The notes beneath the pieces were generated by a model. It was not told where the DNA came from. It saw nothing but the letters and a program-made list of their open reading frames with translations, and did no database searches. From assembly GCA_051306005.1 (NCBI GenBank), contig JBPPMJ010000003.1, positions 249,396-313,395 of the forward strand: a DNA stretch of 64,000 nt. The letters are read 5' to 3'. The stretch is from Minisyncoccota bacterium. GTDB lineage: Bacteria; Patescibacteriota; Minisyncoccia; Moranbacterales; UBA1568. Of the stretch, positions 9,333 to 41,350 are shown piece by piece. A program made the position numbers and the translations under genes. The stretch's first letter is position 1. The number at the start of each line of letters is the position of its first letter.

Positions 9333-9351
9333 AAGTTTTTATTGAATATTT

Positions 9352-10167: not shown

Positions 10168-10184
10168 TAAATAATGAGATAGCT

Positions 10185-11531: not shown

Positions 11532-11543
11532 AATAATCTTGTT

Positions 11544-12740: not shown

Positions 12741-12764
12741 AAGCTTCTGATTCGAATAACTCTA

Positions 12765-13261
12765 ACGATAGACTGTAAAATCTGATATCGTAAACTCCTC
12801 AGCTCGGTCTGTCGGGTCGATTCTTAGCTCAATGAGTTTTTGTCCCAACTTTTTCTCGAGAAGATCAAAATTAATGAGCACATGATCAGATTTTGTATTA
12901 TCTGCGTATTTTTCGCTATACCAACCAATTGCAGGCTCACTTGCGAAGGAATAGTAGAGCCTGGCAAGTCCTGTTCTTCCTGATATGTTAAATTTTAAGC
13001 CCTTAAGCCCATCAGTATTAATGATGATTTGTGCGAATCGTTTGATGTTGAGATTAAAGTGTTATGATCACTTTCTTGGATATTGATAGTATTCTTCTCT
13101 GGTAACGTAAAGGAGATAGTCAAAAATTGTATAGAAGTGTCCGCCTGTTTTTCTATTATAAAATCTGTATTTCGATAAATCCGACGCCACCAGTTACGAG
13201 GATATTCATAGAACGTGTGAGAAAAAAATATCGTTATCATCAATTGTATTTTCCTCGCCAA
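12765..13261 (-). pseudogene. Frameshifted gene remnant of unknown family
   Basis: Two minus-strand frames are open and protein-like. One is the 88-aa ORF 12995..13261 (…FYEYPRNWWRRIYRNTDFIIEK…). The other is a 99-codon stop-free stretch at 12765..13061 with no ATG: …NIKRFAQIIINTDGLKGLKFNISGRTGLARLYYSFASEPAIGWYSEKYADNTKSDHVLINFDLLEKKLGQKLIELRIDPTDRAEEFTISDFTVYR*. The two frames overlap at 12995-13061. The remnant lies at the right edge of the low-GC cassette. Confidence 0.35.
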
Positions 13262-13977
13262 TCATTCAAGCGGATTTTGAGGAGAGCAAAAAACATATTG
13301 ATAGGGTCTCGGAGGATACTCACATTGGTATTGCGAAGGTCTCGAAGAATAGTGACTGGGAGCGTGGTGATACGAGTGTGTAATCGTCGCGCGAGAAATA
13401 TCAGCTCGGCGTCAAAGGCAAAACGCTGAACGGTGATTTTGGAAAAGAGTGCTAGCGCTGTTTCACGGCGGAAAAGCTTGAAACCACACTGTGTATCGGG
13501 ATATCGCACGTTGTTGAGGATGAGCGCTTGGAGCAGGTAGAAACCTCTGGCAAAAATAATCCGATACCAGGAAATGGGTTCATGAAATTTGGATCCACCG
13601 ATGAGTCGTGAGGCAATAACCATGTCTGATGTATCCAGAGCCGTGAGGAAACGGCCGAGTTCGGTGATGGCGATGGTGAGATCGGCATCCAAAAAGAGGA
13701 TAGGATCGTACTGTGAAGCGAGGACACCAGCTTTGACGGCAGAGCCTTTGCCTTGATTGACGGGAAAAGTGATGAGTACCAACGGGATTTCCGCGTGTTC
13801 TTTTTGGAGTTTTTTGACAATTTGATGAGTATGGTCTGGACTGCCATCGACGACAACGATGATTTCATAGCGGTCAAAGTGAGCGGTCAGGTAGCGTGCC
13901 ACAATCAGGATGTTGGTCGTGATGACGTCCGCTTCCTTGTAACAGGGGAGAATAACGGAGATTTCAGGATAGGTCAT
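13240..13977 (-). CDS. GT2-family glycosyltransferase (soluble DPM1/dolichol-phosphate-mannose synthase-like)
   Basis: The N-terminal half is ISVILPCYKEADVI…YEIIVVVDGSPDHT…NQGKGSAVKAGV…ILFLDADL. The likely start is the ATG at 13975-13977 (MTYPEIS). The track ORF extends further, to 14019. Confidence 0.8.
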   Translation of the reverse strand: MTYPEISVILPCYKEADVITTNILIVARYLTAHFDRYEIIVVVDGSPDHTHQIVKKLQKEHAEIPLVLITFPVNQGKGSAVKAGVLASQYDPILFLDADLTIAITELGRFLTALDTSDMVIASRLIGGSKFHEPISWYRIIFARGFYLLQALILNNVRYPDTQCGFKLFRRETALALFSKITVQRFAFDAELIFLARRLHTRITTLPVTILRDLRNTNVSILRDPINMFFALLKIRLNDWRGKYN

Positions 13978-14097
13978 AGAAGGGATAGTAAGAAATACAG
14001 GTATAGTATAGCATATCAAGAGATGGCTTTGCAGTTGTCTATTGGGGGTGAGTACGGTATACTGGAGGCATGTTTAATTTAATAGGTATTTTAGTAT

Positions 14098-15039
14098 ATG
14101 GAATCGACGAGTCCATTTTTATCCGTTATTGTGCCGTTATACAATGAGGCTGGTAATGTGATTGAGTTGCATCGTAAAATTCACACGGCGATGCAAAAAA
14201 TAGGGAAGTCTTTTGAAATTATTTTTATTGATGATGGTTCGACGGATACGACATTTGAAGAGACACGGAACCTCTCTCCGCTCACATTGATTGTGTTTCG
14301 CAAGAATTTTGGACAGACAGCGGCTTTTGATGCGGGTATCAAACAGGCGCAAGGGAATATTATTATCACGCTGGATGGTGATTTACAGAATGATCCGGCG
14401 GATATTCCGTTGTTGCTTGCCAAGATGGACGAGGGATATGACATCGTGTCTGGTTGGCGCTATAAGCGTCAAGATCCTTTGAGCAAGAAAATCCCGTCAC
14501 GTATTGCCAATATTTTGCGTAAAATGCTCATTCACGATAATATTCATGATTCAGGGTGCAGTCTCAAAGCCTATAAGCGAGAATGTTTCCGCGATGTGGA
14601 TCTGTTTGGTGAGATGCATCGTTTCATTCCTGCTATTTTGCAATTGGATGGCTATCGGGTTGGCGAGGTCAAGGTCTCTCATCATCCGCGTGTGCACGGT
14701 GTGACCAAGTACAATTGGAAACGCGGGTTCAAAGGTTTGGTGGATATGATTTCCATCTGGTTTTGGCGCAAGTATTCGTATCGTCCTTTGCATCTCTTTG
14801 GCGCGAGTGGCATATTGCTCTCCAGTATCGGTGGATTGATACTGCTTTGGATGATTGTAGAAAAGTTTTATTTCAATGCGTCTCTTGCGGATCGGATTTG
14901 GCCGTTGATCGGCATTTTCTTTCTCTTGGTGGGTATGCAACTTTTTGTTTCGGGTCTTTTGGCGGATATCGCTGTCCGAAGCTATTATCAAGTGCATCAA
15001 CGGATGAATTATACGATTCGTGAGACACGAAAACAATAA
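14098..15039 (+). CDS. Polyprenyl-phosphate glycosyltransferase (GT2; GtrB/ArnC-like, with two C-terminal TM helices)
   Basis: The GT2 core is LSVIVPLYNEAGNV…FEIIFIDDGSTDTT…NFGQTAAFDAGI…IITLDGDLQNDP. The C-terminus has two hydrophobic helices (LFGASGILLSSIGGLILLWMIV and IWPLIGIFFLLVGMQLFVSGLL), as in bactoprenol glucosyltransferase GtrB and ArnC. Confidence 0.85.
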   Translation: MESTSPFLSVIVPLYNEAGNVIELHRKIHTAMQKIGKSFEIIFIDDGSTDTTFEETRNLSPLTLIVFRKNFGQTAAFDAGIKQAQGNIIITLDGDLQNDPADIPLLLAKMDEGYDIVSGWRYKRQDPLSKKIPSRIANILRKMLIHDNIHDSGCSLKAYKRECFRDVDLFGEMHRFIPAILQLDGYRVGEVKVSHHPRVHGVTKYNWKRGFKGLVDMISIWFWRKYSYRPLHLFGASGILLSSIGGLILLWMIVEKFYFNASLADRIWPLIGIFFLLVGMQLFVSGLLADIAVRSYYQVHQRMNYTIRETRKQ

Positions 15040-15054
15040 ACAAGAATAAAATTT

Positions 15055-16362
15055 ATGAAATTGGCGTTTATCGGTACGGGGTATGTGGGATTGGTATCGG
15101 GAGTATGTATGGCAGAGTTGGGACATACGGTCATCTGCGCTGATAGAGACAAGAACAAAATTGCAAAACTGAAGAAGGGTGTGATGCCGATTTATGAATT
15201 GGGATTGGAGGAGCTTGTTGCCAAAAATGTCTCTGAAGGACGCTTATCTTTTACAACGTCGGTCGGTAAAGCAATCAAGTATGTTGATGTTGTATTTAGC
15301 GCAGTTGGAACGCCCGAAGATCCCAAGACTGGCAAAGCGGATATGCAATATGTCATTGCGGTGGCCAATATGTTTGCCAAGCATCTCAATGGATACAAAA
15401 TTCTTGTTAATAAGTCTACAGTGCCAGTGGGGACGGCGGATCAGTGTCGGGATATCATCTTGCACACGGGTAATAGTAAGTATGAGTTTGATGTGGTGTC
15501 CAATCCAGAATTTTTGCGCGAGGGGGCAGCGATCAAGGATTTTCTCAATCCTGATCGTGTCGTTGTTGGCGTATCATCTGATCGTGCCAGAGTGATCATG
15601 GAAAAAATTTATCGACCGATTACTCGTTCTGGCCGTCCAGTCATCGTGACCGATATCCGTAGTGCCGAATTGATCAAGTATGCTTCCAATGCTTTTCTTG
15701 CTACCAAGATTGCGTTTATCAATGAGATTGCTAATTTCTGTGAGAAGGCAGGTGCCAATGTAAAAGAAGTGGCACGGGGCATGGGAGCGGACAGTCGTAT
15801 CGGGTCGCGTTTTCTCTATGCTGGTATCGGGTACGGTGGGTCGTGTTTCCCCAAGGATGTCCAGGCGTTGTTGCAAACCGGCAAAGAATACGGACATGAG
15901 TTTCAAATTATTCAGGCGGTGGATCGTTCCAATGATATGCAAAAGATGCTTCCGATGAATTTTTTGAAGGGACACTTCAAGCGTTTAAAAGGTAAGACAA
16001 TCGCAGTGTGGGGATTGTCGTTCAAACCGCGGACTGATGATGTACGTGAAGCACCAGCTTTGTATGTCATCACGTCTCTTCTCAAGGCAGGCGCTCATGT
16101 CCAAGTATTTGATCCTGTGGCGATGGAAAGTTTTTGTCGTGTCTTGCCAGACAAGCGTATTCAATATATGCAGAGTGCATACGAGGCGGTCCAGGATGCA
16201 TCGGCATTGCTTGTGATGACCGAATGGGATGAGTTTCGTACGATAGAGTATGCGGAACTTTTGTCACGGATGCGAGAGCGAGTCATTATTGATGGACGCA
16301 ACATCTTTGAACGACGTGAAGCCGAGGCAGAAGGCTTCCTCTATTTTGGCATCGGCACATAG
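15055..16362 (+). CDS. ugd: UDP-glucose 6-dehydrogenase
   Basis: The NAD-binding N-terminus is MKLAFIGTGYVGLVSG. The catalytic Cys region is GYGGSCFPKDVQAL. The C-terminal UDP-binding domain has KGKTIAVWGLSFKPRTDDVRE. Confidence 0.85.
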   Translation: MKLAFIGTGYVGLVSGVCMAELGHTVICADRDKNKIAKLKKGVMPIYELGLEELVAKNVSEGRLSFTTSVGKAIKYVDVVFSAVGTPEDPKTGKADMQYVIAVANMFAKHLNGYKILVNKSTVPVGTADQCRDIILHTGNSKYEFDVVSNPEFLREGAAIKDFLNPDRVVVGVSSDRARVIMEKIYRPITRSGRPVIVTDIRSAELIKYASNAFLATKIAFINEIANFCEKAGANVKEVARGMGADSRIGSRFLYAGIGYGGSCFPKDVQALLQTGKEYGHEFQIIQAVDRSNDMQKMLPMNFLKGHFKRLKGKTIAVWGLSFKPRTDDVREAPALYVITSLLKAGAHVQVFDPVAMESFCRVLPDKRIQYMQSAYEAVQDASALLVMTEWDEFRTIEYAELLSRMRERVIIDGRNIFERREAEAEGFLYFGIGT

Positions 16363-16429
16363 GATACGTTGTTATCGAGAAAGTGTGCAACTGATGTAAT
16401 CACCCAAATAAATGTCAGATTGGCTATAA

Positions 16430-17620
16430 GTGTCTATGAAAATCTTGTTTCTCAATTATGAATATCCTCCGCTCGGAGGTGGTGCAGGTAATGCGACGGA
16501 GTATCTGCTTAGAGAATATGCTTTGATGCCTGATATGGAAGTGCACCTTGTTACGTCATCGGTGGATGACGCATATCATCAGACTGTGATAGGCGGACAG
16601 GTGACAGTGCATACGGTGCCGATTGGCAAAAATCCGAAGACACTTCATTTTCAGTCTACCAAAGATTTACTCCGTTATTCTTGGGCAGGGTATCATTTGG
16701 CGCAGACGTTGTTGCGAGAAGGCAATTTTGATATCATACATGCGTTTTTTGGCATACCATGTGGGGTGCAGGCGTATTTGCTGGGTCGACGTTTCCGCAT
16801 ACCTTATATTGTTTCTTTGCGTGGTGCGGATGTGCCTGGTTTCAGTGAACGATTCAGTTCTCTGGAGTTTGTTTTACGCCCGCTTATTCGGTTTGTCTGG
16901 CGTAGAGCCAGTGCGGTTGTGGCAGTCAGCCAGGGGATGCAGGCATTGGCACGAGAGACGAGTCCCAATCAGGAGATGAGTGTTATTCCCAATGGTATTG
17001 ATATACGGGATTTCATCATGAGTCCTGGGAGTACGGATGGTGTCTTGCGTCTCATTTCTACATCACGTCTGACTCCGCGTAAGGGATTGCACTACTTGAT
17101 AACCGCGATCAAGATATTGCGTGAACAATACGCGATAACGGCGGTAGAAGTACTTTGTATCGGTGATGGACACGAGCGTGCTCAGTTGGAACGACAGGCG
17201 CGAGAGATGGGGACGGCGGAGCAGATACGCTTCATCGGACGTGTTCCACATACGCAATTGGGAGAGTGGTATGCGCAGGCGGATGTTTTTGTTCTGCCTT
17301 CTCTGAATGAGGGGATGAGCAACGCGATGTTGGAAGCTCTTGCGTCTGGTTTGCCACTGCTTGTGACTCGGACTGGCGGTGCCGAAGAAGTGCTGGAGGA
17401 AGGAAAAAATGGTTTTGCCTTGGAAATGCACTCAGCGCAATCTATTGCTGATCAGGTGAAGCGTCTCATAGGTGATCCCGTACTTCGTCGACAGATGGCA
17501 CAGGCGAGTCGTGCCAAAGCAGAAACATTGACCTGGCAATGTGTCGCGCGCGCCTATCGTGCACAGTATGAGATGGCCATCATACCAGTAGCTCAAGAGT
17601 CATCATCTACTCCCGTATGA
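16430..17620 (+). CDS. GT4-family glycosyltransferase
   Basis: It has ILFLNYEYPPLGGGAGN and EGMSNAMLEALASGLPLLVTRTGGAEEVLEEGKNGFAL. The track start is GTG at 16430; an ATG lies at 16436. Confidence 0.85.
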   Translation: MSMKILFLNYEYPPLGGGAGNATEYLLREYALMPDMEVHLVTSSVDDAYHQTVIGGQVTVHTVPIGKNPKTLHFQSTKDLLRYSWAGYHLAQTLLREGNFDIIHAFFGIPCGVQAYLLGRRFRIPYIVSLRGADVPGFSERFSSLEFVLRPLIRFVWRRASAVVAVSQGMQALARETSPNQEMSVIPNGIDIRDFIMSPGSTDGVLRLISTSRLTPRKGLHYLITAIKILREQYAITAVEVLCIGDGHERAQLERQAREMGTAEQIRFIGRVPHTQLGEWYAQADVFVLPSLNEGMSNAMLEALASGLPLLVTRTGGAEEVLEEGKNGFALEMHSAQSIADQVKRLIGDPVLRRQMAQASRAKAETLTWQCVARAYRAQYEMAIIPVAQESSSTPV

Positions 17621-18570
17621 GATATTTTTTAATGCGTTATCGTCAAACATTGCTTCGACTTTTCAAAGTGTTGATAAGTGTGGGGTTGGTGATGTGGTTG
17701 GTCGGAAGGGTGGATTGGAGCGAAGTTGGTCGGCAATTGCAAAGTATTAATGGATGGTGGTTGGGTTGGTATGTTGTTTTTCAGTTATCGGGTAATGTCA
17801 TTTCTACGTGCAAGTGGCAAATCATCTCTGGTTTCAAGGGTATACACTTTACTCTGTACGAGGGTTTCTTTGCGTATTTGACTGGAGCATTCATCAATAA
17901 TTTTTTGCCATCCACTATTGGTGGTGATGCGTATCGTGCGTCATGGCTCGCTCGTCGTACTCACATGCGCACATCTGCTTTTTCTACGGTACTTTTTGAT
18001 CGTTTGAGCGGATTGTGGACCACGTCATTGTTTGCTTTATTCCTCAGCCCTTGGCTCTATTGGGTCAGTGGTGGTAACGCACCATTTTTTATCGCCGTTT
18101 CTCTGTTAATCGGATTTTTTGTGATCAATGTGTTGTTGGTGTTTCTGTGTTATCAGCAGTGGTTTCGGGTTTTGTTTGGGTTTCTTCCTTGGAACAACGT
18201 GCGTCATTTGTTGGAAGAGGTTATTTTTTATACTAAAAAACATATTTTGTGGTCCATCATCCGCTGGTCCGTGTTGTTTATAGTCGTCGGTATCGGGTTA
18301 TCCAATTTGATGCTTTTTTGGGCTCTGGGAAGTAACATCCACCCCGTATCTTTTCTGAGTATTATTTTTTTGGTAACTATTGTTTCCGCCATCCCGCTCT
18401 CCATCAATAATATTGGTATCAAAGAGTGGGCGTACGTAACTTTTTTTGGTTTGGTGGGCATCTCGGTGGAAACCGCTATCACAGTCGCGCTCCTCTCGCG
18501 TTTTCTTCAGATGGTCATCTCTTTCATCGCGCTCCCTCGGTATCTGAGAAAGGAAAATGGGGTAGTATAG
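17617..18570 (+). CDS. UPF0104 / lysyl-phosphatidylglycerol-synthase-TM-like ('flippase-like') polytopic membrane protein
   Basis: About 8 hydrophobic helices are present. The conserved-type motif is FINNFLPSTIGGDAYRASWLARRT. It overlaps the upstream GT4 gene as ATGA. Confidence 0.5.
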   Translation: MRYFLMRYRQTLLRLFKVLISVGLVMWLVGRVDWSEVGRQLQSINGWWLGWYVVFQLSGNVISTCKWQIISGFKGIHFTLYEGFFAYLTGAFINNFLPSTIGGDAYRASWLARRTHMRTSAFSTVLFDRLSGLWTTSLFALFLSPWLYWVSGGNAPFFIAVSLLIGFFVINVLLVFLCYQQWFRVLFGFLPWNNVRHLLEEVIFYTKKHILWSIIRWSVLFIVVGIGLSNLMLFWALGSNIHPVSFLSIIFLVTIVSAIPLSINNIGIKEWAYVTFFGLVGISVETAITVALLSRFLQMVISFIALPRYLRKENGVV

Positions 18571-18596
18571 TGTGCGTTTCTAGGGAGAATGATTTT

Positions 18597-20240
18597 TCAA
18601 TAGGTCAGGCATCCTTGTGGAAAAGTGGCACTTGGTTCAGGCAGGTCAGTGATCTCGAATGTAGCACCAAGCGTGCCGAAAGGAATCAAATCGTTGTCTT
18701 CTTCCAACCTGTATTCGTTGATGAAAAGGTGATTGAATCCGACAGGTATTGTTTTTTGTTTCCCTCTCATATAACATCCGCGGTATCCGTATTCTGCCGA
18801 AAGTACATAGTACATTGATTTGACGTGATGACTTTCTCCGGAAATAAGTATTGGAGTCGTCGGTACGAATTTTTGATTGGCTGTTTTGGCGATCGCTCTT
18901 AATTGTCCGAGTGTCACCTTTGCTTCGGTGCCAAACCGTAGATCACGACTGCTTTCCTCTGCTGATACTTGAGAGACTGCCAGTTCACGGAGATATTTCG
19001 TGGTTGCTTGAAGGTTGAGAAGAATCAAAGCGGTACCGATAAATATTGCGGTATATTTCAGCCGTGGTTGGTGGCTGGTGTTTAGAATACGTTCAATGGC
19101 GAGACCGAAAAATATGAAAAGAGGCGGTATGAGACCGAGATAGAAACGAGTTTCTATCTCATACGCCACCAGTATCGTGACAAGAAAGAAACCACCAAAC
19201 CATAGCCCGATGAATGAGAGCGCCTTTTTCTGACGCGGAACCACGATGGATTTCCAGTGGCGATAGTTTGAGATAATTATAAAACTGAATAAGATCATAC
19301 TTGCAATGGAATAGGGGAGTGCTTCTTGGCATTCTTGGTCACATTTAACAGAAAGACCACGCGTCAGTATCATGTCGGTGTTTTGTTGTCCGGTAGTGAT
19401 GAGCCAGATGATGCGACTTCCCTGCTGATATGCGCGGATCGTTTTTTCGTACCAAGCGTGCTTGGTATCTTGATATTTCTCGCTAGTAGTTGCTGAGAGA
19501 AACATCTTTGTGTTAGATCCATTTGTTTGCCACTCATAGACAAAGAGTGGGGCTTGGAGGGTTATTACTATCATCATGGAAATAATAATTTCTCTAAGAC
19601 GAAGTTCTTTTGAAAAAATTTGAAAGAGTATTAGTCCTATGCCGAGGCCGAGTATCGCCACCATATGTAGCTGTGCAATGATACCTAAGGATATGGCAGC
19701 TGCGATGAGAAGCCATCGTCGTTCGTTACCATTTTTCTCTATGGCACTAAGAAAAAACCAAGAAAACATAGTTGTGAAGAACGGCAGACTGTTTGGGTTC
19801 CATGCGAAACGGGAAAATGTTACCAACAAGAGAGAAATACTTGCCATTGTCGTAAGCCACAAAGACACGGGGACGGAAAGGAATCGCCGAAGAAGCAAAA
19901 AAAGGAATGGTATGGTAAGAATACCGAATAGTAGATCCGGATAGGCGAAGCTTTCCGGCGTACCGCCGAACAGTTTACCTGAAACATACTGGAAATAATA
20001 GGAAATCGGTCCGAGTCGAAACCCTGTACTGCCAGCTTCTGAACCAAGGAGTGGCAATGATATGATACCGTTAATCATCGCCTGTTCCATGATAAGTGCG
20101 TCACGTGCCTGGTCAGATTTGAAAACAAGCCAATCGCTATGGTGTATGGTCCGTAATCCGATACCGACAAGAGAGATGGCAATGAGAACGAGAAAGGAAT
20201 ATTTCACGCGCCATTTTTCCATATAATTTTTGATGGACAT
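18597..20240 (-). CDS. GT-C fold membrane glycosyltransferase, ArnT/PMT_2-like (subfamily A)
   Basis: It has more than 10 TM helices. The first extracytoplasmic loop carries DQARDALIMEQ…LPLLGSEAGSTGFRLGP. Later it has FSRFAWNPNSLPFF. A large C-terminal soluble domain follows. Confidence 0.75.
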   Translation of the reverse strand: MSIKNYMEKWRVKYSFLVLIAISLVGIGLRTIHHSDWLVFKSDQARDALIMEQAMINGIISLPLLGSEAGSTGFRLGPISYYFQYVSGKLFGGTPESFAYPDLLFGILTIPFLFLLLRRFLSVPVSLWLTTMASISLLLVTFSRFAWNPNSLPFFTTMFSWFFLSAIEKNGNERRWLLIAAAISLGIIAQLHMVAILGLGIGLILFQIFSKELRLREIIISMMIVITLQAPLFVYEWQTNGSNTKMFLSATTSEKYQDTKHAWYEKTIRAYQQGSRIIWLITTGQQNTDMILTRGLSVKCDQECQEALPYSIASMILFSFIIISNYRHWKSIVVPRQKKALSFIGLWFGGFFLVTILVAYEIETRFYLGLIPPLFIFFGLAIERILNTSHQPRLKYTAIFIGTALILLNLQATTKYLRELAVSQVSAEESSRDLRFGTEAKVTLGQLRAIAKTANQKFVPTTPILISGESHHVKSMYYVLSAEYGYRGCYMRGKQKTIPVGFNHLFINEYRLEEDNDLIPFGTLGATFEITDLPEPSATFPQGCLTY

Positions 20241-20295: not shown

Positions 20296-21993
20296 CTAAA
20301 AAGCGCTGACTTCTCGGTCCATATTTTTTTCAGGACTGTCGGTGATGATGCCGATTTTACATTGTTTTTGCTGAGACGAAAACGTCAAGAGGGTAAAACG
20401 TCCGAAGCGCTCTTCTTGTAAGACAGTATAGCAAAACTTGTATTCGGCTAAACGTTTTTCTTTTACAGTGTTTTCAGTAATGACAAAGACGATTGAATTT
20501 TCACTTACTTCTTCTTTGGGAGAAAAATCTGCTACTATCACTTCTTGTTTACTGATGAGGTATTCTATGGAACGTTTGAATTCAAACGGAGCAATGAAAA
20601 GCTTTTTGTCGGGTTCGTTATAGCGCGTTTTGATGATTGATTCAGTAATGCGTTTGGCTTCACCCAGACTGATGCCACCGTAGGTGCTGTCCTTGGCAGT
20701 GTAATCATCCAAATCATAGCTTTGCATATAGGCACGGAGGTTGCCTGCAATCACTATGAGGAAGAAGAGGGTGATGAGGGTGACAGCGATACGTGTATGT
20801 TGACGCAAATGCGTGAAGAGGTATTCTGCCATCAACCCGAGAAACAGAAATGGTAGAAAGAACACGACAATGAAAAATCGGACACTAAGCTCTTCGGCGA
20901 TAGGAAGAAACAAAACAAACAGGAGTCCGGTTGTAGCCGTGGTCAGCCACAAGAAATGTTGTTTGTGTTGGAGCGTTTTACGTTGGAGGCGTTGAATGGT
21001 GAGCCATGTGCCAAGCGTGAAGAATGTAATGCCAAAGACAAAAAGGAGTATCTCGCCTTTGTCTTTACTGGCGATGAGTTTGTAGGGTTTGAACCAATTT
21101 TTTTGTGGCTCGATACCAGTCAAGGCATACGTATTGCCAATGAGAAAGAAGTGTACATCCGAGAGGATATTTTGTGTTATTGATACGTTTTTTTCAGTTT
21201 TCTTTTCGGTACCAGCGAAAAAAGAAGCGATGTTGGTACCGTGATTTTGGATATCAAAAATAAAGAAAGGGGTATGACTGAGAATAGTGATACCTATGGT
21301 CAATATTATTGGACGCCACGCAATGTTTTTGTGTTGAAAAAAGAGGCATCCCTGGCTCATGACAAAGAGTATCGGCATCAACAAAAAAAGGGTAGTGTGG
21401 AGTTGCATCCCGATACCCATGATGACACCGAGCAGTCCAAAGTGAAAAAGACGATGACGAGCATCAGGGACAAGAGTGCGTTGGAGCAAAATGAGAAAGG
21501 CGAAGAGAAAGAAGGGAATGAGATTTGGATTCCATGCAAAGCGTGAGTAACGGATGTTGTAGAACGAAAGTGCGTAGAGCAGTGAAAGTCCCAGTGTGAG
21601 GAACGGTGAAAAAAATAAACGGAAAAAAATAAAGAAGAGGCCGATGGAGGCAATACTTGCCAATGGCACGATGAGTGCCATTCCTGCTGGTGTATGACCG
21701 AACAGTAAGGCGGAACCATATTCCAAATAATAGAATGCTGGACCGAGATGAAAAGTGGTACCGCCGGCCTTGGGGCCCAAGAGTGGAAAGTTGCCTGTGA
21801 ACATTTGATCGATGACTTTGGCATCACGTACTTGATCAGCGTTGAAACGTGTCAAATATTCAAAATTGTTGAGGCGCATAAAAGCACCGATACAGAGGAT
21901 ACTGAGTAAAAGAAGCGTGATATGATGCCGATGAATCCAGAGAATAGCTGAAGTGTTTTTGATGTGAGAAGAGCTATTTTTTTTCATAGACAT
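20296..21993 (-). CDS. GT-C fold membrane glycosyltransferase, ArnT/PMT_2-like (subfamily A paralog)
   Basis: It has DQVRDAKVIDQ…PLLGPKAGGTTFHLGP and YSRFAWNPNLIPFF. It lies in tandem with the 18597..20240 paralog. Confidence 0.75.
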   Translation of the reverse strand: MSMKKNSSSHIKNTSAILWIHRHHITLLLLSILCIGAFMRLNNFEYLTRFNADQVRDAKVIDQMFTGNFPLLGPKAGGTTFHLGPAFYYLEYGSALLFGHTPAGMALIVPLASIASIGLFFIFFRLFFSPFLTLGLSLLYALSFYNIRYSRFAWNPNLIPFFLFAFLILLQRTLVPDARHRLFHFGLLGVIMGIGMQLHTTLFLLMPILFVMSQGCLFFQHKNIAWRPIILTIGITILSHTPFFIFDIQNHGTNIASFFAGTEKKTEKNVSITQNILSDVHFFLIGNTYALTGIEPQKNWFKPYKLIASKDKGEILLFVFGITFFTLGTWLTIQRLQRKTLQHKQHFLWLTTATTGLLFVLFLPIAEELSVRFFIVVFFLPFLFLGLMAEYLFTHLRQHTRIAVTLITLFFLIVIAGNLRAYMQSYDLDDYTAKDSTYGGISLGEAKRITESIIKTRYNEPDKKLFIAPFEFKRSIEYLISKQEVIVADFSPKEEVSENSIVFVITENTVKEKRLAEYKFCYTVLQEERFGRFTLLTFSSQQKQCKIGIITDSPEKNMDREVSAF

Positions 21994-22034: not shown

Positions 22035-23963
22035 CTATTGCCGAAATGGAATAACAGCGATGAAATTGTCAGGACGATTATTGATATGGATCGACCAAAC
22101 AGATTTTTCTCGTAGCTGATCGAAATAATAATCGCTGTCTTTGGCGGGCTGAGGATTGTTTTCCAAGAGAAAACGGTTGCTTACCTTGATGGCGCCACGC
22201 TTGGAAATGACGAAGTAATCCGGGGTGACACGGGCAAGGTCTATGTGCCGTGACTTGAGACACTTGCCGACGAAAAATCGGCAGACGGTGTCGCTGTTGG
22301 ACCAGATAATCAAACGCTCGGCATCGGGTAGGCTATTAAGGTACTGTGCCGACTCATAAGAGCCGTGTCCCCAGGAATCATGGATGGAAAGTGTTTGTGG
22401 TAAGAGAAAATTGGTATAGCTAAAATAGAATGGGCGGGAGATGAAAGCCAATGTACCCATAACCAAAAGCAAAAGAAATGCTATTCTCATAAATATACTG
22501 GATGCATTGATGCGCTTGGCAAACAAGTCCGTCAATATTACGGCAGAGAGTATTGCGATGAGCGGGTAGAGAAGAATGATATAGCGAACGTTGGTCACTA
22601 CTTGAGCATACTGAGCAGATATGAGATACAAGAGGATGAATGAGATCATGGTAACAATGATAGCGCCGGCCGTATCGGAAACTTTACGCAACAGGATTTG
22701 AGTAAAGGCACAGAGAAACAGAAAGAGTACAAGAGGGGAGACGGAGAAAATTAAAGGAGTGGCTTCCATTAAAAACAACTGAAACGTGGTATGAAGAGAG
22801 TCGTCTTTTCTATCCAAAATCGGCTTGAAGTTGAATTCTTTTGGCTCATTGGCATAGGCTTGATCGCGTAGGGAGCTAACGGGCGATAGGCGTTCACCGC
22901 TCCAGACATTGATGAGAAGAAGGGTAATGAGTAGAAGAAAGAGTGATGATATGATAGTTAATATCCAATGGCGTTTGTTGGCTAACCAGCCGAGACCTAT
23001 TCCGACTAAACGTTGAAATGATAGAAGAGTCAAAAGGAGTACAAAGGCACTACTGGCGATAACAAGAAAATTTTTGAGAGTGAGGAATTGAGAAATACCC
23101 TTGAAAAGATATTCTGGATGGAATAAAACAGCTGGAAGGAACACGGAAAAAATGACTAAAGAGATGAGAAAGATGCAGAAGATATCCACTAGGTAACGTA
23201 GAAGTTGTTTGGCAGTTATTTGTTTTGCCGTATCGGAATCTTGAAAGATGATGTGAGCAAGAAAAAAAAGTCCATAAAACAGGAAGAGAATGAAGGCGGT
23301 ATATTTTGATAGAAGTGCAAAACCAGTCAGGATACCAGTGAGCCAAAGAAATGTGATTTTTTTTGTCCGTACAAGCGCCATATAGGCGCATATTGAGAGT
23401 CCGCCGAAAATCCAGAATACACTGTCTGGATTGATGATTTGGGACATACCGAGCAGGATAGGATTGAGAGCAATGAAGATAGTACTGAATAACGCAATTG
23501 GATAAGAGGCGAAGCCCAAGAATAGCAGTCGGAAAAAAAGAAAGAGCGAGAGCGTGGCAAAGATAAGTACTGGCAGACGGAATGTGAAGTTGGTCTGTTC
23601 GCTTTGCGCGATGTTGTAGGCTTCGAATAGCTTTTCTCCTTCCCCTGACTGAGGGATTTTTTCATTATTTTTCGGATGTGGCTCGAAGAGAAGTCCGATG
23701 CCAGAAATGAGAGCGACCGTGACTCCGGGTTTGTCGTTGATGTAGGTTTGCTCCCACTCTTGAGTTTTGATGGCACTCCAGTATTGCTCGATTCGACTAT
23801 ATTTCCAGAGATGTTCATCAGTCGTTTCAAATTTCCCTAAATGAAAAAAACCTAAAAAAAAGAAAACGATCATCGTGATAAGAAGAACAATATGAGAGAA
23901 GTGACGCTCTAACGTCAGCCGGTGAACGGATTTTGATTTGAAAGAGAGGGTTTGATTATGCAT
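22035..23963 (-). CDS. GT-C fold membrane glycosyltransferase, ArnT/PMT-like (subfamily B)
   Basis: A DE-motif loop is present: TTDEHLWKYSRIEQYW…NDKPGVTVAL. It has multiple TM helices and a C-terminal extracytoplasmic domain. Confidence 0.75.
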   Translation of the reverse strand: MHNQTLSFKSKSVHRLTLERHFSHIVLLITMIVFFFLGFFHLGKFETTDEHLWKYSRIEQYWSAIKTQEWEQTYINDKPGVTVALISGIGLLFEPHPKNNEKIPQSGEGEKLFEAYNIAQSEQTNFTFRLPVLIFATLSLFLFFRLLFLGFASYPIALFSTIFIALNPILLGMSQIINPDSVFWIFGGLSICAYMALVRTKKITFLWLTGILTGFALLSKYTAFILFLFYGLFFLAHIIFQDSDTAKQITAKQLLRYLVDIFCIFLISLVIFSVFLPAVLFHPEYLFKGISQFLTLKNFLVIASSAFVLLLTLLSFQRLVGIGLGWLANKRHWILTIISSLFLLLITLLLINVWSGERLSPVSSLRDQAYANEPKEFNFKPILDRKDDSLHTTFQLFLMEATPLIFSVSPLVLFLFLCAFTQILLRKVSDTAGAIIVTMISFILLYLISAQYAQVVTNVRYIILLYPLIAILSAVILTDLFAKRINASSIFMRIAFLLLLVMGTLAFISRPFYFSYTNFLLPQTLSIHDSWGHGSYESAQYLNSLPDAERLIIWSNSDTVCRFFVGKCLKSRHIDLARVTPDYFVISKRGAIKVSNRFLLENNPQPAKDSDYYFDQLREKSVWSIHINNRPDNFIAVIPFRQ

Positions 23964-23969
23964 ATAATT

Positions 23970-26339
23970 TTATGGTGTAAAAGAAAATATCTTCACAAAT
24001 TGTCCGGGACGACCATTGATGTACACTTCAAAAACAGGATCATTCTGCTGATAGTAGGCATCAAAACGGATCAGTCCTTCGTCATTGAGAAGATAGGGGT
24101 TGACCATCATCCTTACTGTCCGACTTTCACGTCCGGTGGATATCACCACATAATCCAGTTCGGAGGAGGCAATTTCTGAAAAATTGAACCCGTCCAAGCA
24201 CGTGCCGACGAAAAACTTGCAGACACCGCGTTTATCCGTCCAAATAGTAAGGTTTTTGGCATTGGGGATATGATTCAGATAATTTGCCGCCTCGTAACTG
24301 CCACTTCCCATATCCTTGATATCAATGGTGTAAGCATTTGGCAAAAGAGCTGACGAAAAACTGAGAGGAAATGGATTCAGCATCAAAACACTTATTCCTG
24401 AAACGGCAAGTAGCACCACTCCGACCAAAAAGTGTTGCTCCCATACTTTCAGAGCTGGCAGGACACGGATGAGATACTGCATCAGCCATGCCAGTCCGAT
24501 GCCACCAACGATGCTCAAAAGCGGATACAGGATGATTTGGTAGCGGTTGATCAAGACCACCTGATTGACGGTTGCCCCGAGAAAAAAGAGGAGAATAAAC
24601 AGAATGACGGCAAAAATAAAGCGATGTGTCCGGGTATTTTCACGGCGCCGATACCATGCAGAACCAAGAGCGATCATACAGCCTGCGAAAATGAGTGTCG
24701 GGATGCCAAAAAATAGAGGATAAAAATTCGTCAAAAAAATACTGGAAATTGCGCTAATTTCATAGGTGCTCTTGGGCGAAGCGAGGATATGCATAAAATC
24801 CATCCACCGCATTTGAAAAAAACTGTTGATCAGCACAAAGCCTATGATGCCCGCAAAGAGGATCAATATCGCGCTAAAAACGTACTCTTGGTATTGTTTC
24901 AGCTTGTCCATTACGAACGTACTGATACTGCGTTCACCCAAAAAATGCTGATCAAGCCAGATAAGAACAATAAAGACGAGAAACAGTGGCGCTACTTTTT
25001 CAAATGCCTGACTCAAAATCGTTCCGGTGATAAGATCAATCGGGCGCACCCACATAGCCGGCAACAAAAGATAGAATGTTGAAAGCCCAGTACCCAGCCA
25101 GATACCGAAAAAGTTCAGCTCGCGTTTGAAGTATTGGGTAAATGGCAGGGTATTATTTTGCGCGAAAAGATAGCGCACGATGATGTATCCGAAAAAGTAT
25201 ATAATGAGAAAGTTGGCGACGTATTTGGTGAGGAGCGCCAGTCCCAACAGGATGCCAGAAAAAATAAGCATTCGCAGTTGTCGTTTTTCCAAAAAGACGA
25301 GATATGCCAGAAAGGAGAGTGGCGCAAAAATCCATAATAACGAATCTGGATTGACGATTTTGCTGATACCGATGAGCAGGGGGGAAAGCGCTATACTCGC
25401 ATACGCGTACAGCGCCGTCCTGTTTCCCAAAAGAGGCACCAGAAAAAAATAGAAAAGCGGAAGCAGTATCGTGATAACGATCAATAGCGGAAGGCGGAAC
25501 GCCAGATACATATCCCTGATGTCGGCTTGTTCATTGTTGGCAGAAAAGACGGCACGCGTATCACGATAGTCTTTTGGCGAGACAAAGAGCAGTCCCGGAC
25601 CAGTCACCATTGTCAGTGTCACTCCGGGTTTGTCGCTCACATCTGTTTTCTCCCAATCCCCTTCGCTGAGGTTTTTCCAGAAACTACCGATGCGTCCTTC
25701 CAACCAGAGTGGTTCATCTACAGAAGCAAATTCCGTCAAACGCAAACATCCAAAACTAAAAAAAACAATGGTCAGAAGGAGTACCGCGAGCAGGTTGGCG
25801 GTACCGTATTTTTTGATAGCTGAAGCGAAAGGGGGTGGGATAAAAAACAAAATGACGGATTGAATGGTGAAACGCTCATACTGTGGTTGAATGACGGAAA
25901 GTGCCCAGTACACGAAAGCAGAGATACAATATATCCCAACACCGAACAAGGCTGGCGCAGGAGAGTGATGAGAGAATGACAGTCCAATGGTGAGTAGGAT
26001 CGCCGAAGGAAGAAAAAAAACAAGCATTTCCTTGAGAACCATCGGCATCTGCCATTGTGTCCGGCGTCCAATGAGGATGAAACCAGAAAGAATAACGCAT
26101 AAAAAAATAATATAAAAAACGTCAGCGTACCACATACTCCGAAAGACTTTGAAAAAGGGTGTCCGAACGAGATCTTGGAGAAGAAAAAGTCCTGCTGTTA
26201 GAAGCGTGACAACACTCCATACAAAAGGTGATCGTAAGAATGAGGGGATTGGCATAGGGGAAAAATTATTACTCAGTAATTTCCAAGCGTGATATCTTGT
26301 CAAAATCCTTAAAAAGACTATACTATGATGAGTGCTCAC
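23970..26339 (-). CDS. GT-C fold membrane glycosyltransferase, ArnT/PMT-like (subfamily B paralog, 789 aa)
   Basis: It has SVDEPLWLEGRIGSFW…SDKPGVTLTM. About 13 or more TM helices are present. It sits 6 nt from the preceding paralog. Confidence 0.75.
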   Translation of the reverse strand: MSTHHSIVFLRILTRYHAWKLLSNNFSPMPIPSFLRSPFVWSVVTLLTAGLFLLQDLVRTPFFKVFRSMWYADVFYIIFLCVILSGFILIGRRTQWQMPMVLKEMLVFFLPSAILLTIGLSFSHHSPAPALFGVGIYCISAFVYWALSVIQPQYERFTIQSVILFFIPPPFASAIKKYGTANLLAVLLLTIVFFSFGCLRLTEFASVDEPLWLEGRIGSFWKNLSEGDWEKTDVSDKPGVTLTMVTGPGLLFVSPKDYRDTRAVFSANNEQADIRDMYLAFRLPLLIVITILLPLFYFFLVPLLGNRTALYAYASIALSPLLIGISKIVNPDSLLWIFAPLSFLAYLVFLEKRQLRMLIFSGILLGLALLTKYVANFLIIYFFGYIIVRYLFAQNNTLPFTQYFKRELNFFGIWLGTGLSTFYLLLPAMWVRPIDLITGTILSQAFEKVAPLFLVFIVLIWLDQHFLGERSISTFVMDKLKQYQEYVFSAILILFAGIIGFVLINSFFQMRWMDFMHILASPKSTYEISAISSIFLTNFYPLFFGIPTLIFAGCMIALGSAWYRRRENTRTHRFIFAVILFILLFFLGATVNQVVLINRYQIILYPLLSIVGGIGLAWLMQYLIRVLPALKVWEQHFLVGVVLLAVSGISVLMLNPFPLSFSSALLPNAYTIDIKDMGSGSYEAANYLNHIPNAKNLTIWTDKRGVCKFFVGTCLDGFNFSEIASSELDYVVISTGRESRTVRMMVNPYLLNDEGLIRFDAYYQQNDPVFEVYINGRPGQFVKIFSFTP

Positions 26340-39300: not shown

Positions 39301-39309
39301 ACGAAAACA

Positions 39310-40389
39310 CTACATATTTTTTTTTATAAACATTGCCAAGGCTTCGATATACAGACGAGAAATGATATTCCAATGATAGGTCATTTCTGTATAATGACGT
39401 GCACGATTTCCGAGTAATTTCCGTTCTTCTTCATTTTCAAAGAGTCTGATGATTTCTTGAATAAAAGACTCTGGATTTCCTGATTCCACCAAGAGACCAT
39501 TTTCTTTATGACGAATGGCATCGCGCAAACCCTCTAAATCAGAAGCGATGACTGGACGACCACAAGCAGACGCTTCAATAACGGCGATGCCAAAACCTTC
39601 CATATCATGAGGAACCTTGATGTTCGGTTGAACAAAAACATCGATGGTATTGAGTAGTAAATTGCGTTCAGTATCACTGACCTTGCCAAGTAAATAAACA
39701 CGATTTTGCAAAGCAGTTTCTCGGATAGCATTTTCAATCTGTTTTTTTTCCGGTCCATCACCCGCCAAAACGTAAAGTATTTTTTCGGGTAAATGTGGTA
39801 AAACAAAACGAATAAACCATTCCGCGCCCTTGCGTTTCGCAAGACGACCGCTCGTTAATAGAACAAATTTATCCGATAAGTTTTCGTGTAGAAAATCTGC
39901 AAGTTGATCTCGCGTGTACCGCCCTTGTACTGAGTCAGTGTCAATGCCATTATGCACGACCGTAATATTGTCTGCTGGAATGTGTTTGGCAATCGCTGAT
40001 TGGCGCGTTTCCTCACTTACTGCGATCAGTCCGTCTAAGGCTGGGAGAAAATGCCCGACCCACCACAGCTGATAAAAAGGATTTTTGTAGAGAATATCGA
40101 GTCCATGAATGACGGAAACAACAGTTTTTTTGGGAAAAAAGAGTTTGATGATCCAACCGACAATAGCCAGTACACCGTCGCCCAAAAGAATGACATCATA
40201 TCGACGAGCTTTCCATAGTGTTACTAATGTGACAAAGGGTAAAAACCAAAATAATGCTTTTTTGCCATGATGATTGGCAATAGTATCAGTAGGTTGCACA
40301 CGTTTGAGCCAAAGAGAGAGCGCATAATTCTGATTTTCTATACCACCGGTAACTGGTGGATAGGCACGTGAAATAAAGAGGATACGCAT
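39310..40389 (-). CDS. GT4-family glycosyltransferase
   Basis: It has MRILFISRAYPPVTGGIENQ and EGFGIAVIEASACGRPVIASDLEGLRDAIRHKENGLLVE. Confidence 0.85.
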   Translation of the reverse strand: MRILFISRAYPPVTGGIENQNYALSLWLKRVQPTDTIANHHGKKALFWFLPFVTLVTLWKARRYDVILLGDGVLAIVGWIIKLFFPKKTVVSVIHGLDILYKNPFYQLWWVGHFLPALDGLIAVSEETRQSAIAKHIPADNITVVHNGIDTDSVQGRYTRDQLADFLHENLSDKFVLLTSGRLAKRKGAEWFIRFVLPHLPEKILYVLAGDGPEKKQIENAIRETALQNRVYLLGKVSDTERNLLLNTIDVFVQPNIKVPHDMEGFGIAVIEASACGRPVIASDLEGLRDAIRHKENGLLVESGNPESFIQEIIRLFENEEERKLLGNRARHYTEMTYHWNIISRLYIEALAMFIKKNM

Positions 40390-40392
40390 AAT

Positions 40393-41346: not shown

Positions 41347-41350
41347 ACGC

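Follow-up and report, generated by a model that had tools for sequence, protein, structure and literature searches.

A conserved Moranbacteria locus with two sugar-dehydrogenase modules and seven GT-C-type proteins, a probable pathway for a cell-surface glycoconjugate

The window analysed here, a stretch of 64,000 nucleotides, stems from a MAG of the Moranbacteria type (Patescibacteria), an uncultured bacterium of ultra-small size. Positions 13240-42880 form a super-locus that is kept across Moranbacteria. Its two modules, each composed of a nucleotide-sugar 6-dehydrogenase, a TM-anchored GT2 and a GT4, enclose seven GT-C-type membrane transferases (Table 1). Five of these genes (GT2a, GT2b, Ugd, UPF0104 and GT2c) had been named in an earlier sequence-only reading; all were located where it had placed them and their families hold. 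The gene order GT2b-Ugd-GT4-UPF0104-GT-C array was seen again in most of 80 related genomes, among relatives whose GT2b is 64-81% identical, and because the order recurs in this way the grouping is far beyond chance. With denominators that differ per gene in this synteny survey (71, 58, 51 and 45 loci), Ugd directly followed GT2b in 48/71 loci, the GT4 was present in 52/58, UPF0104 in 42/51, at least one GT-C in 38/45 and at least two in 35/45. The neighbourhood of GT2, UPF0104 and GT-C genes, whose conservation the earlier reading had proposed to check, is kept across relatives.

Table 1. Features of the super-locus, in positions of the window.
Feature	Coordinates	Strand	Evidence
GT2a, DPM1/PpgS-like GT2, 245 aa, TM-less	13240..13977	-	PF00535 E 2.7e-24
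GT2b, GtrB/ArnC-architecture polyprenyl-phosphate GT2, 313 aa, two C-terminal TM helices	14098..15039	+	PF00535 E 3e-30
Ugd, UDP-glucose 6-dehydrogenase, TuaD-like	15055..16362	+	three UDPG_MGDP_dh (UDPG/MGDP dehydrogenase) domains, TuaD 546 bits
GT4 (GT-B) glycosyltransferase	16430..17620	+	PF00534 E 2.9e-38
UPF0104, stand-alone PF03706 MprF-type flippase-domain protein	17617..18570	+	PF03706 123 bits vs cut-off 33.4
GT-C 1, PMT_2 type	18597..20240	-	PF13231 36.6 bits vs 26.1
GT-C 2, paralogue of GT-C 1 and 5, without Pfam match	20296..21993	-	hhalign 100% probability to GT-C 1/5
GT-C 3, PMT type	22035..23963	-	PF02366 46.6 bits vs 22.7
GT-C 4, PMT/PMT_2 type, N-terminal extension	23970..26339	-	PF13231 45.8 bits; hhalign 100% to GT-C 3
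GT-C 5, PMT_2 type	26409..28202	+	PF13231 42.1 bits; hhalign 100% to GT-C 1/2
Membrane-anchored right-handed beta-helix + PGA_cap protein, within array	28206..30524	+	PF13229 E 6e-19, PF09587
Probable sixth GT-C, without Pfam family	30547..32073	+	hhalign 92-94% to GT-C 1/2/5, 255-341 columns
Wzx/MOP-family flippase-like protein, far edge of array	32098..33582	-	PF01943, PF03023, PF01554
Seventh GT-C-fold protein, 661 aa, DUF6541-like, second module	37315..39300	-	AF2 + Foldseek
GT4b, second-module GT4	39310..40389	-	PF00534 E 8.8e-37
GT2c, AglJ/DPMS-like GT2, two C-terminal TM helices	40393..41346	-	PF00535
Second nucleotide-sugar 6-dehydrogenase, UDP-HexNAc/ManNAc dehydrogenase type	41594..42880	-	TIGR03026 408 bits

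Within the block GT2b is conserved best, with a median identity of 74% to its relatives. Residues 8-309 match three ArnC structures end to end (E ~5e-48) and GtrB with an E-value of ~4e-27, and these alignments take in both hydrophobic C-terminal helices (residues 236-254 and 270-288; TM segments were called by hydropathy, KD19 ≥ 1.6). Among 201 orthologues D93/D95/Q97, R121, K130, S134, S155 and R198 are invariant, and the DGDLQN motif, R121, S134 and R198 are the counterparts of the DXD motif, R128, S141 and R205 of ArnC (10.1101/2025.01.29.634835). Judged by its sequence, GT2b belongs to the GtrB/ArnC/DPMS class of polyprenyl-phosphate glycosyltransferases, as had been proposed: it has the architecture as well as the invariant residues for catalysis and for the acceptor phosphate, and both GT2b and GT2c have two C-terminal helices. 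GT2a, in contrast, shows no hydrophobic segment at the above threshold. Its best solved relative is the P. furiosus DPMS (PfDPMS), to which it aligns over residues 5-223, with counterparts of the DXD motif and of DPMS R117, R131 and R202 in place. The gene lies on the minus strand, a point on which the earlier reading was silent, divergent from GT2b and the rest, and directly adjoins GT2b in just 10/71 relatives.

Ugd carries the GGSCFPKD catalytic-Cys motif; its best NCBIfam model is TuaD, and it reaches 469 bits with the NDP-sugar dehydrogenase subfamily model (cut-off 189.8). The position of Ugd beside an ArnC-like enzyme had suggested an analogy with the Ara4N pathway, in which UDP-GlcA would give rise to a nucleotide-linked pentose or aminopentose, to be loaded onto the lipid carrier by GT2b. 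ArnC, the Und-P-L-Ara4FN transferase, is indeed the best relative of GT2b among both solved structures and NCBIfam models, and Ugd starts only 15 bp after GT2b, while in the Arn pathway pmrE is functionally linked to arn. However, GT2b scores 172 bits with the ArnC equivalog model, the cut-off of which is 529, residues specific to ArnC and to GtrB are absent from it, and its invariant Ser155 and Lys130 replace Met162 and the sugar-contacting Arg137 of ArnC. Neither the 64-kb window nor the conserved block contains an Arn-type decarboxylase, aminotransferase, formyltransferase or deformylase, and ArnA/B/D/E/F genes are absent; the sole formyltransferase in the window (53240-54289) adjoins def and is fmt, and the conserved block is too tightly packed for ArnA/B/D-type genes. 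Moreover, Ugd is missing from the block in four loci (L064, L068, L070 and L071). The Ara4N analogy is therefore unsupported, and such a pathway is regarded as highly improbable. The Patescibacteria host is expected to be of the monoderm type, in which case the lipid A target would be absent as well.

The GT-C array converges on UPF0104 and starts 26 bp past the stop codon of that gene. GT-C 1 has at least eight TM segments and an invariant D43/D47 after TM1, corresponding invariant residues are D53/D57 in GT-C 2 and the DE motif D49-E50 in GT-C 3, the acidic motif of GT-C 4 is D208-E209, and the sixth candidate has a conserved D33-E34 after TM1. In locus L083, three tandem paralogues of this sixth gene stand in for the PMT-type array. 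The AF2 model of the 661-aa protein (pLDDT 83, pTM 0.87) retrieved only GT-C structures among the top 15 Foldseek hits (DPY19, STT3, ArnT, AftA, PglB and EmbB; E-values down to 4e-8). On the basis of PMT/PMT_2 matches above cut-off, profile-profile links, the invariant acidic motif after TM1 and the fold of the 661-aa protein, we conclude that the locus encodes seven GT-C-type proteins, the upper of the "six or seven" previously estimated. The beta-helix/PGA_cap protein within the array has a single N-terminal TM segment, adjoins GT2b in four loci (L032, L034, L035 and L071) and is possibly a glycan-modifying enzyme.

The Wzx-like gene borders the array on its far side and keeps this position in L083, L084 and L086. 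Wzx-like proteins have precedents for flipping polyprenyl-P-sugars in GacK (10.1101/180810) and Citrobacter ORF14 (PMC11127046), and this protein is as good a candidate for that step as UPF0104. The window also encodes Wzy_C, Wzz-like, Wzt ATPase, LCP and TagA/WecG proteins in addition to Wzx, and further GT4 and GT2 genes. Beyond the Wzx-like gene, the array is flanked by the second module, a mirrored set of sugar dehydrogenase, GT2c, GT4 and GT-C. GT2c, with TM segments at 239-257 and 278-296, matched TIGR04182 over its full length with 110 bits, which is under the cut-off, and PfDPMS with an E-value of 3.7e-16; from these similarities it is a candidate second polyprenyl-P-sugar synthase. 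The nearest equivalogs of the second dehydrogenase are UDP-ManNAc dehydrogenase and TviB, all below cut-off. It heads the second module in relatives, where this module is kept, and GT4b takes the same position in L084, L086 and L087.

The gap between Ugd and UPF0104 is filled by the GT4, a gene missed by the sequence-only reading. The characterised proteins nearest to it are generic (BshA, MshA, PimA/B, EpsE and TuaC) and point to no lipid acceptor. The UPF0104 assignment survived both the profile and the fold test: the protein also scores above the TIGR00374 cut-off, and its AF2 model (pLDDT 89.5), for which the top six Foldseek hits were all MprF (TMq 0.59-0.66), has the MprF flippase fold. 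The two genes overlap by 4 bp, and in 45 loci both were present in 36, the GT4 only in one, UPF0104 only in none and neither in eight. In more distant relatives GT4::UPF0104 occurs as a single protein; P0260 and P0266 are of this kind and, among fused proteins, come closest to the UPF0104 profile. Over the full length of each, P0260 shares 41% identity with the GT4 and 37% with UPF0104, and its neighbourhood holds a GT2b orthologue (67% identity), Ugd, the fusion, three unk508 paralogues, Wzx, Tmk-like and RtcB genes. Overlap, co-occurrence and fusion make UPF0104 most likely, as judged from gene arrangement, the flippase partner of the GT4, and the flippase-like protein would thus be more likely to move the product of the GT4 than that of GT2b.

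This bears directly on the "complete donor module" seen by the earlier reading, a scaled-up Gtr/Arn three-component system with UPF0104 as the dedicated flippase of the GT2b product and the GT-Cs as transferases; in such a system the GT4 would be an unrelated neighbour. In favour of this view, the window has no GtrA/SMR-like small membrane ORF, and UPF0104 abuts the GT-C array here and directly adjoins a GT-C in 26/36 loci; it stays there even in four permuted loci (L020, L024, L027 and L030), where the GT4 is found with GT2b-Ugd. In addition, archaeal UPF0104 domains, predicted flippases in glycosylation, are fused to AglD-type GT2s and lie near PMT/STT3-like GT-Cs and AglD-like GT2s, a GT2, UPF0104 and GT-C neighbourhood also found here (Makarova et al. 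2015; PMC5898192). In the Moranbacteria lineage, however, the partner to which UPF0104 is coupled or fused is a GT4 and not a GT2, with no GT2::UPF0104 fusion among the top 150 representatives. The presence of UPF0104 also follows the GT4 rather than the GT-Cs, as six loci have GT2b and a GT-C but no UPF0104; the array retains a candidate flippase of the Wzx/MOP type, and no UPF0104 protein is known to flip a polyprenyl-P-sugar. The permuted loci, and L012 and L017 with the two genes 2-5.6 kb apart, indicate that physical coupling of GT4 and UPF0104 is not obligatory and that UPF0104 may be tied to the GT-C step, but we consider the three-component reading rather doubtful. What stands of the earlier interpretation is the class of GT2b, UPF0104, the seven GT-Cs and the conserved neighbourhood, while the complete module and the Ara4N analogy do not.

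The other polymer genes allow a reading without any coupling, in which Ugd and the GT4 would serve a cytoplasmic Wzx/Wzy- or ABC-dependent pathway for a teichuronic-acid-like polymer, GT2b and the GT-Cs would only decorate that polymer, and UPF0104 would be a general phospholipid translocase. In line with this, TuaD and TuaC are among the best NCBIfam matches of Ugd and the GT4, and a role as general lipid translocases has been put forward for PplT/UPF0104 proteins (10.1101/2022.03.11.483950). Yet these other genes lie outside the block that relatives conserve, the window yielded no initiating phosphoglycosyltransferase, and the GT4::UPF0104 fusion and strict co-occurrence favour a specific pair, which leaves this explanation improbable.

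[quoted passage not shown] GT2b, and probably GT2c and GT2a, would load monosaccharides onto polyprenyl phosphate at the cytoplasmic face, and these donors would be flipped by UPF0104, the conserved Wzx-like protein or both, and used outside by the GT-C enzymes. Like GpgS/GpgF and HexS/HexF, the GT4 and UPF0104 would produce another lipid-linked glycoside, plausibly a glycolipid that in turn serves the GT-Cs as acceptor or anchor, and carry it across the membrane. GpgSDF (P. aeruginosa GlcN-phosphatidylglycerol) and HexSDF (C. difficile aminohexosyl glycolipid) are precedents of such GT-B and UPF0104 systems, in which the role of the stand-alone UPF0104 flippase is itself putative (PMC12713373, PMC10128005). 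The likeness lies in family and gene arrangement, a cytoplasmic GT-B gene with a stand-alone UPF0104/MprF-like flippase-domain gene; here the genes overlap and are fused in relatives. Unlike in those systems, no deacetylase lies beside them, and the pair sits between polyprenyl-P GT2/Ugd and the GT-C array.

As in the three-component systems (GtrA/B/V of Shigella and Salmonella, GacI/J/K/L of S. pyogenes, Citrobacter ORF12/14/15 and the mycobacterial DPA/PPM-dependent GT-C pathways), a GtrB/ArnC/DPMS-class GT2 is found beside GT-C-fold transferases with a candidate flippase near, and, as in Corynebacterineae, several GT-Cs would draw on a small set of common lipid-linked donors (PMC11127046, 10.1101/180810). 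The present locus differs in its seven GT-Cs of at least four sequence families, its two mirrored modules, both of which include a sugar 6-dehydrogenase of their own and a GT4, the lack of a GtrA/SMR protein and its host, a genome-reduced Patescibacteria lineage without a characterised envelope glycan. The dehydrogenase-GT2 pairing, seen twice here, would fit the example of Rhizobium, where RgtE provides bactoprenyl-P-galacturonic acid for the ArnT-like GT-Cs RgtA-D,F, a precedent for a uronic acid on polyprenyl phosphate being transferred by a GT-C (PMC7663294). This likeness is one of gene pairing; a UDP-GlcA 4-epimerase was not seen here, and the Rgt target is LPS, which Patescibacteria are not expected to make. 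Ugd may supply UDP-GlcA for GT2b, the GT4 or both, in which case the glycoconjugate of these bacteria would probably be acidic.

All genes that the sequence-only reading had named were found in the ORF map. Ahead of the GT-C array, the run of GT-C-type membrane transferase genes that follows the UPF0104 gene, it had left out a GT4 glycosyltransferase gene. From GT2b, a GT2 glycosyltransferase, to the UPF0104 protein, the genes of the block are separated by gaps of 15 and 67 bp, followed by a 4-bp overlap of the GT4 stop codon with the UPF0104 start. The first GT-C gene is set off from this block by a 26-bp convergent junction. When 12600-18800 was scanned for promoters and terminators, the counts equalled those expected from shuffled sequence and were uninformative on operon structure, and the Rfam scan of the whole window found no RNA family.

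Features of the GT2b block and of the second module (window positions)
Feature	Position	Strand	Description
GT2a	13240-13977	-	245 aa; PF00535, E 2.7e-24; divergent from the rest of the block
GT2b	14098-15039	+	PF00535, E 3e-30
Ugd	15055-16362	+	three UDPG/MGDP dehydrogenase domains (PF03721, PF00984, PF03720)
GT4	16430-17620		396 aa; PF00534, E 2.9e-38
UPF0104 protein	17617-18570	+	PF03706, 123 bits vs cut-off 33.4
Second module	37315-42880	-	dehydrogenase, 79-aa TM ORF, GT2c, GT4b, 661-aa GT-C (DUF6541-like), then 125-aa TM ORF and GT
Second-module dehydrogenase	41594-42880	-	UDP-HexNAc-type 6-dehydrogenase
GT2c	40393-41346	-	AglJ/DPMS-like GT2, two C-terminal helices

Hydropathy analysis found no hydrophobic segment in GT2a. 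Its best solved relative is the dolichol-P-mannose synthase (DPMS) of P. furiosus, and within the aligned residues 5-223 lie the DXD motif and counterparts of R117, R131 and R202 of DPMS. For GT2b, residues 8-309 align to residues 10-312 of ArnC (three structures, E ~5e-48), residues 7-308 to Synechocystis GtrB (E ~4e-27) and residues 7-252 to P. furiosus DPMS. Kyte-Doolittle hydropathy peaks at residues 236-254 and 270-288 indicate two C-terminal TM helices, colinear with those of the solved members. Residue assignments for GT2b were taken from the structural paper on ArnC (10.1101/2025.01.29.634835). The GT2b motif 93-DGDLQN-98 is aligned with 100-DADLQN-105 of ArnC and DADLQD of GtrB, and D93, D95 and Q97 are invariant among 201 orthologues. 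R121, S134 and R198, likewise invariant in this set, correspond to R128, S141 and R205 of ArnC and sit at the aligned positions that bind the acceptor and donor phosphates, where DPMS has R117, S135 and R202.

The position that discriminates between the families is Asp157 in GtrB, Met (Met162) in ArnC and Gly in DPMS (10.1101/2025.01.29.634835); in GT2b it is an invariant Ser155. At the position of Arg137, which contacts Ara4FN in ArnC, GT2b has an invariant Lys130, the same residue as in GtrB, while Ser134, at the Ser/Ala position, is ArnC/DPMS-like. GT2b scored 171.9 bits against the ArnC equivalog PRK10714 (cut-off 529) and 146 bits against the PgfS equivalog (cut-off 500). By its alignments, conserved residues and C-terminal helices GT2b is a member of the polyprenyl-phosphate GT2 class (GtrB/ArnC/DPMS), predicted to transfer a monosaccharide from a nucleotide sugar to polyprenyl phosphate, but it is neither ArnC nor GtrB proper. 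ArnC was rejected because of the score below cut-off, Ser155 and Lys130 in place of Met162 and Arg137, and the lack of ArnA, ArnB, ArnD and ArnE/F nearby; GtrB was rejected because of Ser155 for Asp157, Ser134 for Ala, and the lack of a GtrA partner in the window.

Ugd scored 469 bits against the NDP-sugar dehydrogenase subfamily TIGR03026 (cut-off 189.8) and contains the catalytic-Cys motif GGSCFPKD; by architecture, subfamily score and motif it is a predicted member of the UDP-glucose 6-dehydrogenase class. Its best equivalog, TuaD, gave 546 bits, under the cut-off of 700, so the substrate is taken from the best match only. The neighborhood of Ugd and an ArnC-like enzyme had suggested a donor made by analogy with the Ara4N pathway. 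This analogy was not supported: UDP-GlcA decarboxylase, aminotransferase and deformylase were all missing from the window ORFs of at least 150 aa (Pfam and NCBIfam), and neither the 64-kb window nor the conserved block contains ArnA, ArnB, ArnD or ArnE/F. In the relatives, the block leaves no space for additional genes. The only formyltransferase, at 53240, was considered as an ArnA N-terminal domain and rejected; it is a 349-aa Fmt-type protein and, because its gene directly adjoins the peptide deformylase gene def, was identified as fmt. In four relatives, Ugd is gone from the block.

A search of a species-level genome collection gave 303 confirmed relatives of GT2b, the overwhelming majority of them from Moraniibacteriota/Parcubacteria MAGs. 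For synteny, 80 loci with flanks of up to 10 kb were compared with the window proteins, and only loci with a flank sufficient to see the gene in question were counted. GT2b was directly followed by Ugd in 48 of 71 loci, the GT4 orthologue came next in 52/58 and UPF0104 was present in 42/51. At least one GT-C was seen in 38 of 45 loci, at least two in 35 and at least three in 17, and all four partners were found in 19 of the 28 loci with at least 8 kb on both flanks. GT2a was a direct neighbor of GT2b in 10/71 loci only. Conservation was graded: median identity to the window fell from 74% in GT2b through 63% in Ugd, 46.5% in GT4 and 45% in UPF0104 to 28-41% in the GT-Cs. Many contigs of loci L003-L082, whose genes share 64-81% identity with the Moranbacteria-type locus described here, are titled 'uncultured Bdellovibrionales bacterium' in public records, which is probably a placeholder or mislabelled taxonomy.

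The UPF0104 protein scored 64.9 bits against TIGR00374 (cut-off 43.2). A PDB sequence search with this protein gave no match, and a fold search was used instead. The AlphaFold2 model, built from 40 orthologues (pLDDT 89.5, pTM 0.85), had MprF at all of Foldseek ranks 1-6 (TMq 0.59-0.66, probability 1.0), and from rank 7 onward TM was below 0.3. The UPF0104 assignment of the sequence-only reading thus stood, with the Pfam and TIGR00374 scores above their cut-offs and a predicted MprF membrane-domain fold.

The genetic partner of UPF0104 appears to be GT4. In the 45 loci whose flank reaches 8 kb or more beyond GT2b on the downstream side, GT4 and UPF0104 occurred together in 36, GT4 alone in one, UPF0104 alone in none and neither in eight; GT-Cs were found without UPF0104 in six of the 45. 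A UPF0104 profile search over 1.84 billion representatives gave 18,617 relatives at E ≤ 1e-3, and the nearest multidomain proteins among the best 150 of these were two GT4::UPF0104 fusions, P0260 and P0266. P0260 matches both window proteins over the full length of each, GT4 at 41% identity and the UPF0104 protein at 37%. The neighborhood is the same too: its locus (L083) encodes a GT2b orthologue (67%), Ugd and the fusion, then three proteins paralogous to the 508-aa array protein, Wzx, a Tmk-like protein and RtcB. The operons gpgSDF (PMC12713373) and hexSDF (PMC10128005), each with a GT-B and a UPF0104 gene, produce glycosylated membrane lipids with experimental support, and GpgF and HexF are their putative lipid translocases. 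GT4 and UPF0104 in the window form a comparable genetic pair of a GT-B enzyme and a UPF0104 protein that stands alone; unlike GpgSDF and HexSDF, which have a deacetylase as third component, no polysaccharide deacetylase was found in the block or window by Pfam and NCBIfam scans.

Alternatively, UPF0104 may handle the product of GT2b, instead of or besides that of GT4. This would agree with archaeal UPF0104 domains that are fused to AglD-type GT2s beside GT-Cs (PMC5898192), with four permuted relatives in which UPF0104 remains with the GT-Cs and GT4 with GT2b-Ugd, and with insertions between GT4 and UPF0104 in two loci (L012, L017). Taken together, the 4-bp overlap, the co-occurrence, the fusions and the published operons point to the GT4 product as the one that UPF0104 most probably translocates. 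The nearest characterized relatives of GT4 (BshA, MshA, PimA/B, EpsE, TuaC) were too generic for an acceptor to be assigned.

Other fusions were seen among the UPF0104 relatives, with a sulfotransferase (P0366) and with an alpha/beta hydrolase (P0341). P0322 and P0349 (1168-1180 aa) combine UPF0104 with a further 7-8-TM domain and a large soluble domain without family; they could not be claimed as UPF0104::GT-C fusions, because the extra polytopic domain had no Pfam match and did not resemble the GT-Cs of the window. The block of L083 also contains two inserted Metallophos (calcineurin-like phosphoesterase) genes, at 9029-9994 and 16655-17695, one of them between Ugd and the fusion, and the window has no counterpart of either.

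The number of GT-Cs, estimated from the sequence at six or seven, was settled at seven by families, hhalign and fold. Four array proteins matched PMT or PMT_2 above the Pfam cut-off. Profile-profile comparison with hhalign distinguished a subfamily 18597/20296/26409 from a subfamily 22035/23970, with ~95% probability that the two are related; it also linked the array protein GT-C 2 to the Pfam-positive GT-Cs and tied the 508-aa protein (30547-32073) to the 18597/20296/26409 subfamily at 92-94% probability. PDB sequence searches with two GT-Cs gave no match, and neither the 508-aa nor the 661-aa membrane protein had a usable Pfam match even at E ≤ 5. The model of the 661-aa protein (37315-39300; pLDDT 83) matched in fold only GT-C enzymes, namely DPY19, STT3, ArnT, AftA, PglB and EmbB (lowest E 4e-8). 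Just past TM1, in the first outside loop, an invariant acidic motif reads DQxRD in the 18597/20296/26409 subfamily, DE in 22035/23970 and DE in the 508-aa protein. The array proteins are thus GT-Cs: they are polytopic, carry the acidic motif and have a family or fold match.

The order of the second module recurs in L084, L086 and L087, followed in relatives by RtcB, Tmk-like, Wzx and the PMT-type array, and L084 and L021 lie ~7 kb apart on one 767-kb contig. Since the second module is conserved together with the array in relatives, 13240-42880 is one conserved super-locus, in which the GT-C array stands between two like modules, each with a sugar 6-dehydrogenase, a TM-anchored GT2 and a GT4. 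Within the array, the protein encoded at 28206-30524 is anchored in the membrane and combines a right-handed beta-helix with a PGA_cap-like domain at the C-terminus; it may act on glycans outside the cytoplasm as a lyase, epimerase or hydrolase. In L032, L034, L035 and L071, its homologues are found immediately upstream of GT2b. Beyond the second dehydrogenase, 1.2 kb (42880-44065) has no convincing ORF or Rfam match, and the counterpart side in relatives carries GT2, EamA or GFO_IDH genes.

Besides the UPF0104 protein, the window holds a second flippase candidate, the Wzx/MOP protein at 32098-33582, which is conserved at the far edge of the GT-C array in relatives. Wzx-type flippases are used by the GacK and Citrobacter ORF14 systems (10.1101/180810; PMC11127046), and with this precedent the Wzx/MOP protein is, by analogy, an alternative candidate for flipping the polyprenyl-P-sugar. 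No GtrA/SMR-like small multi-TM ORF was found in the window. The trio of the Wzx-like flippase, a thymidylate-kinase-like protein and the RtcB RNA ligase (32098-35699) is kept within the super-locus in L083, L084 and L086. The gene at 7042-8370 codes for an ABC ATPase of the Wzt type, including the glycan-binding Wzt_C domain, and no Wzm permease gene adjoins it; its neighbor on the opposite strand is a P-type ATPase. At 8001-12740 lies a low-GC island (GC 0.32 vs 0.40-0.48 in the flanks) with two methyltransferases, a WsaF-like protein and a GT. About 29 relatives have at this position a GacI/GacJ-like pair (223-aa GT2 and DUF2304) and GT4 genes, and the island looks like a cassette replacement. 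No remnant of the GacI-like GT2 or of the DUF2304 gene was found in the 500-bp gap 12741-13240 or elsewhere in the window, which lacks DUF2304 genes altogether.

In the proposed mechanism, GT2b, GT2c and possibly GT2a would make polyprenyl-P-monosaccharides on the cytoplasmic face; these would be flipped by the Wzx-like and/or UPF0104 proteins and then used outside by the GT-Cs. A further lipid-linked glycoside, which may serve as acceptor or anchor, would be made and flipped by GT4 and UPF0104. Since a 6-dehydrogenase is paired twice with a polyprenyl-P-type GT2, the products likely contain uronic acid, for which either a GT2 or GT4 could be the user; a lipid-linked uronic acid has precedent in bactoprenyl-P-GalA, made via RgtE (PMC7663294). 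In the fullest form of this reading, to which we give roughly one chance in eight, Moranbacteria would build an acidic lipoglycan or wall polymer wholly outside the membrane, with Pren-P-GlcA from Ugd and GT2b and Pren-P-HexNAc-uronate from the second dehydrogenase and GT2c as donors, and the seven GT-Cs polymerizing onto a glycolipid anchor made by GT4 and flipped by UPF0104. If true, Pren-P-GlcA would be a lipid-linked donor not yet described, and, Saccharibacteria aside, the pathway would give a Patescibacteria lineage its first defined envelope polymer.

The components and the general logic are known already from three-component systems, Corynebacterineae-style multi-GT-C pathways and the GpgSDF/HexSDF pairs. 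In full-text literature searches that paired Patescibacteria/CPR with GT-C, ArnT or polyprenyl terms, no paper on the block came up, nor was a description found of their conserved combination in these bacteria, of the mirrored modules or of the evidence from GT4::UPF0104 fusions. Patescibacteria are host-attached bacteria with genomes of ~1 Mb, and to our knowledge almost nothing has been learned about the chemistry of their surface. The lineage studied here retains a conserved super-locus of ~30 kb. Because GT2b is conserved across species (64-81% identity) while the GT-Cs diverge down to around 30%, the locus suggests a constant donor that feeds variable surface structures, which would fit a host-interaction molecule. 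The locus offers a concrete, testable parts list. Finally, the gene fusion argues that stand-alone UPF0104 proteins act with GT-B glycosyltransferases, which bears on the unproven flippase role of a very large family.
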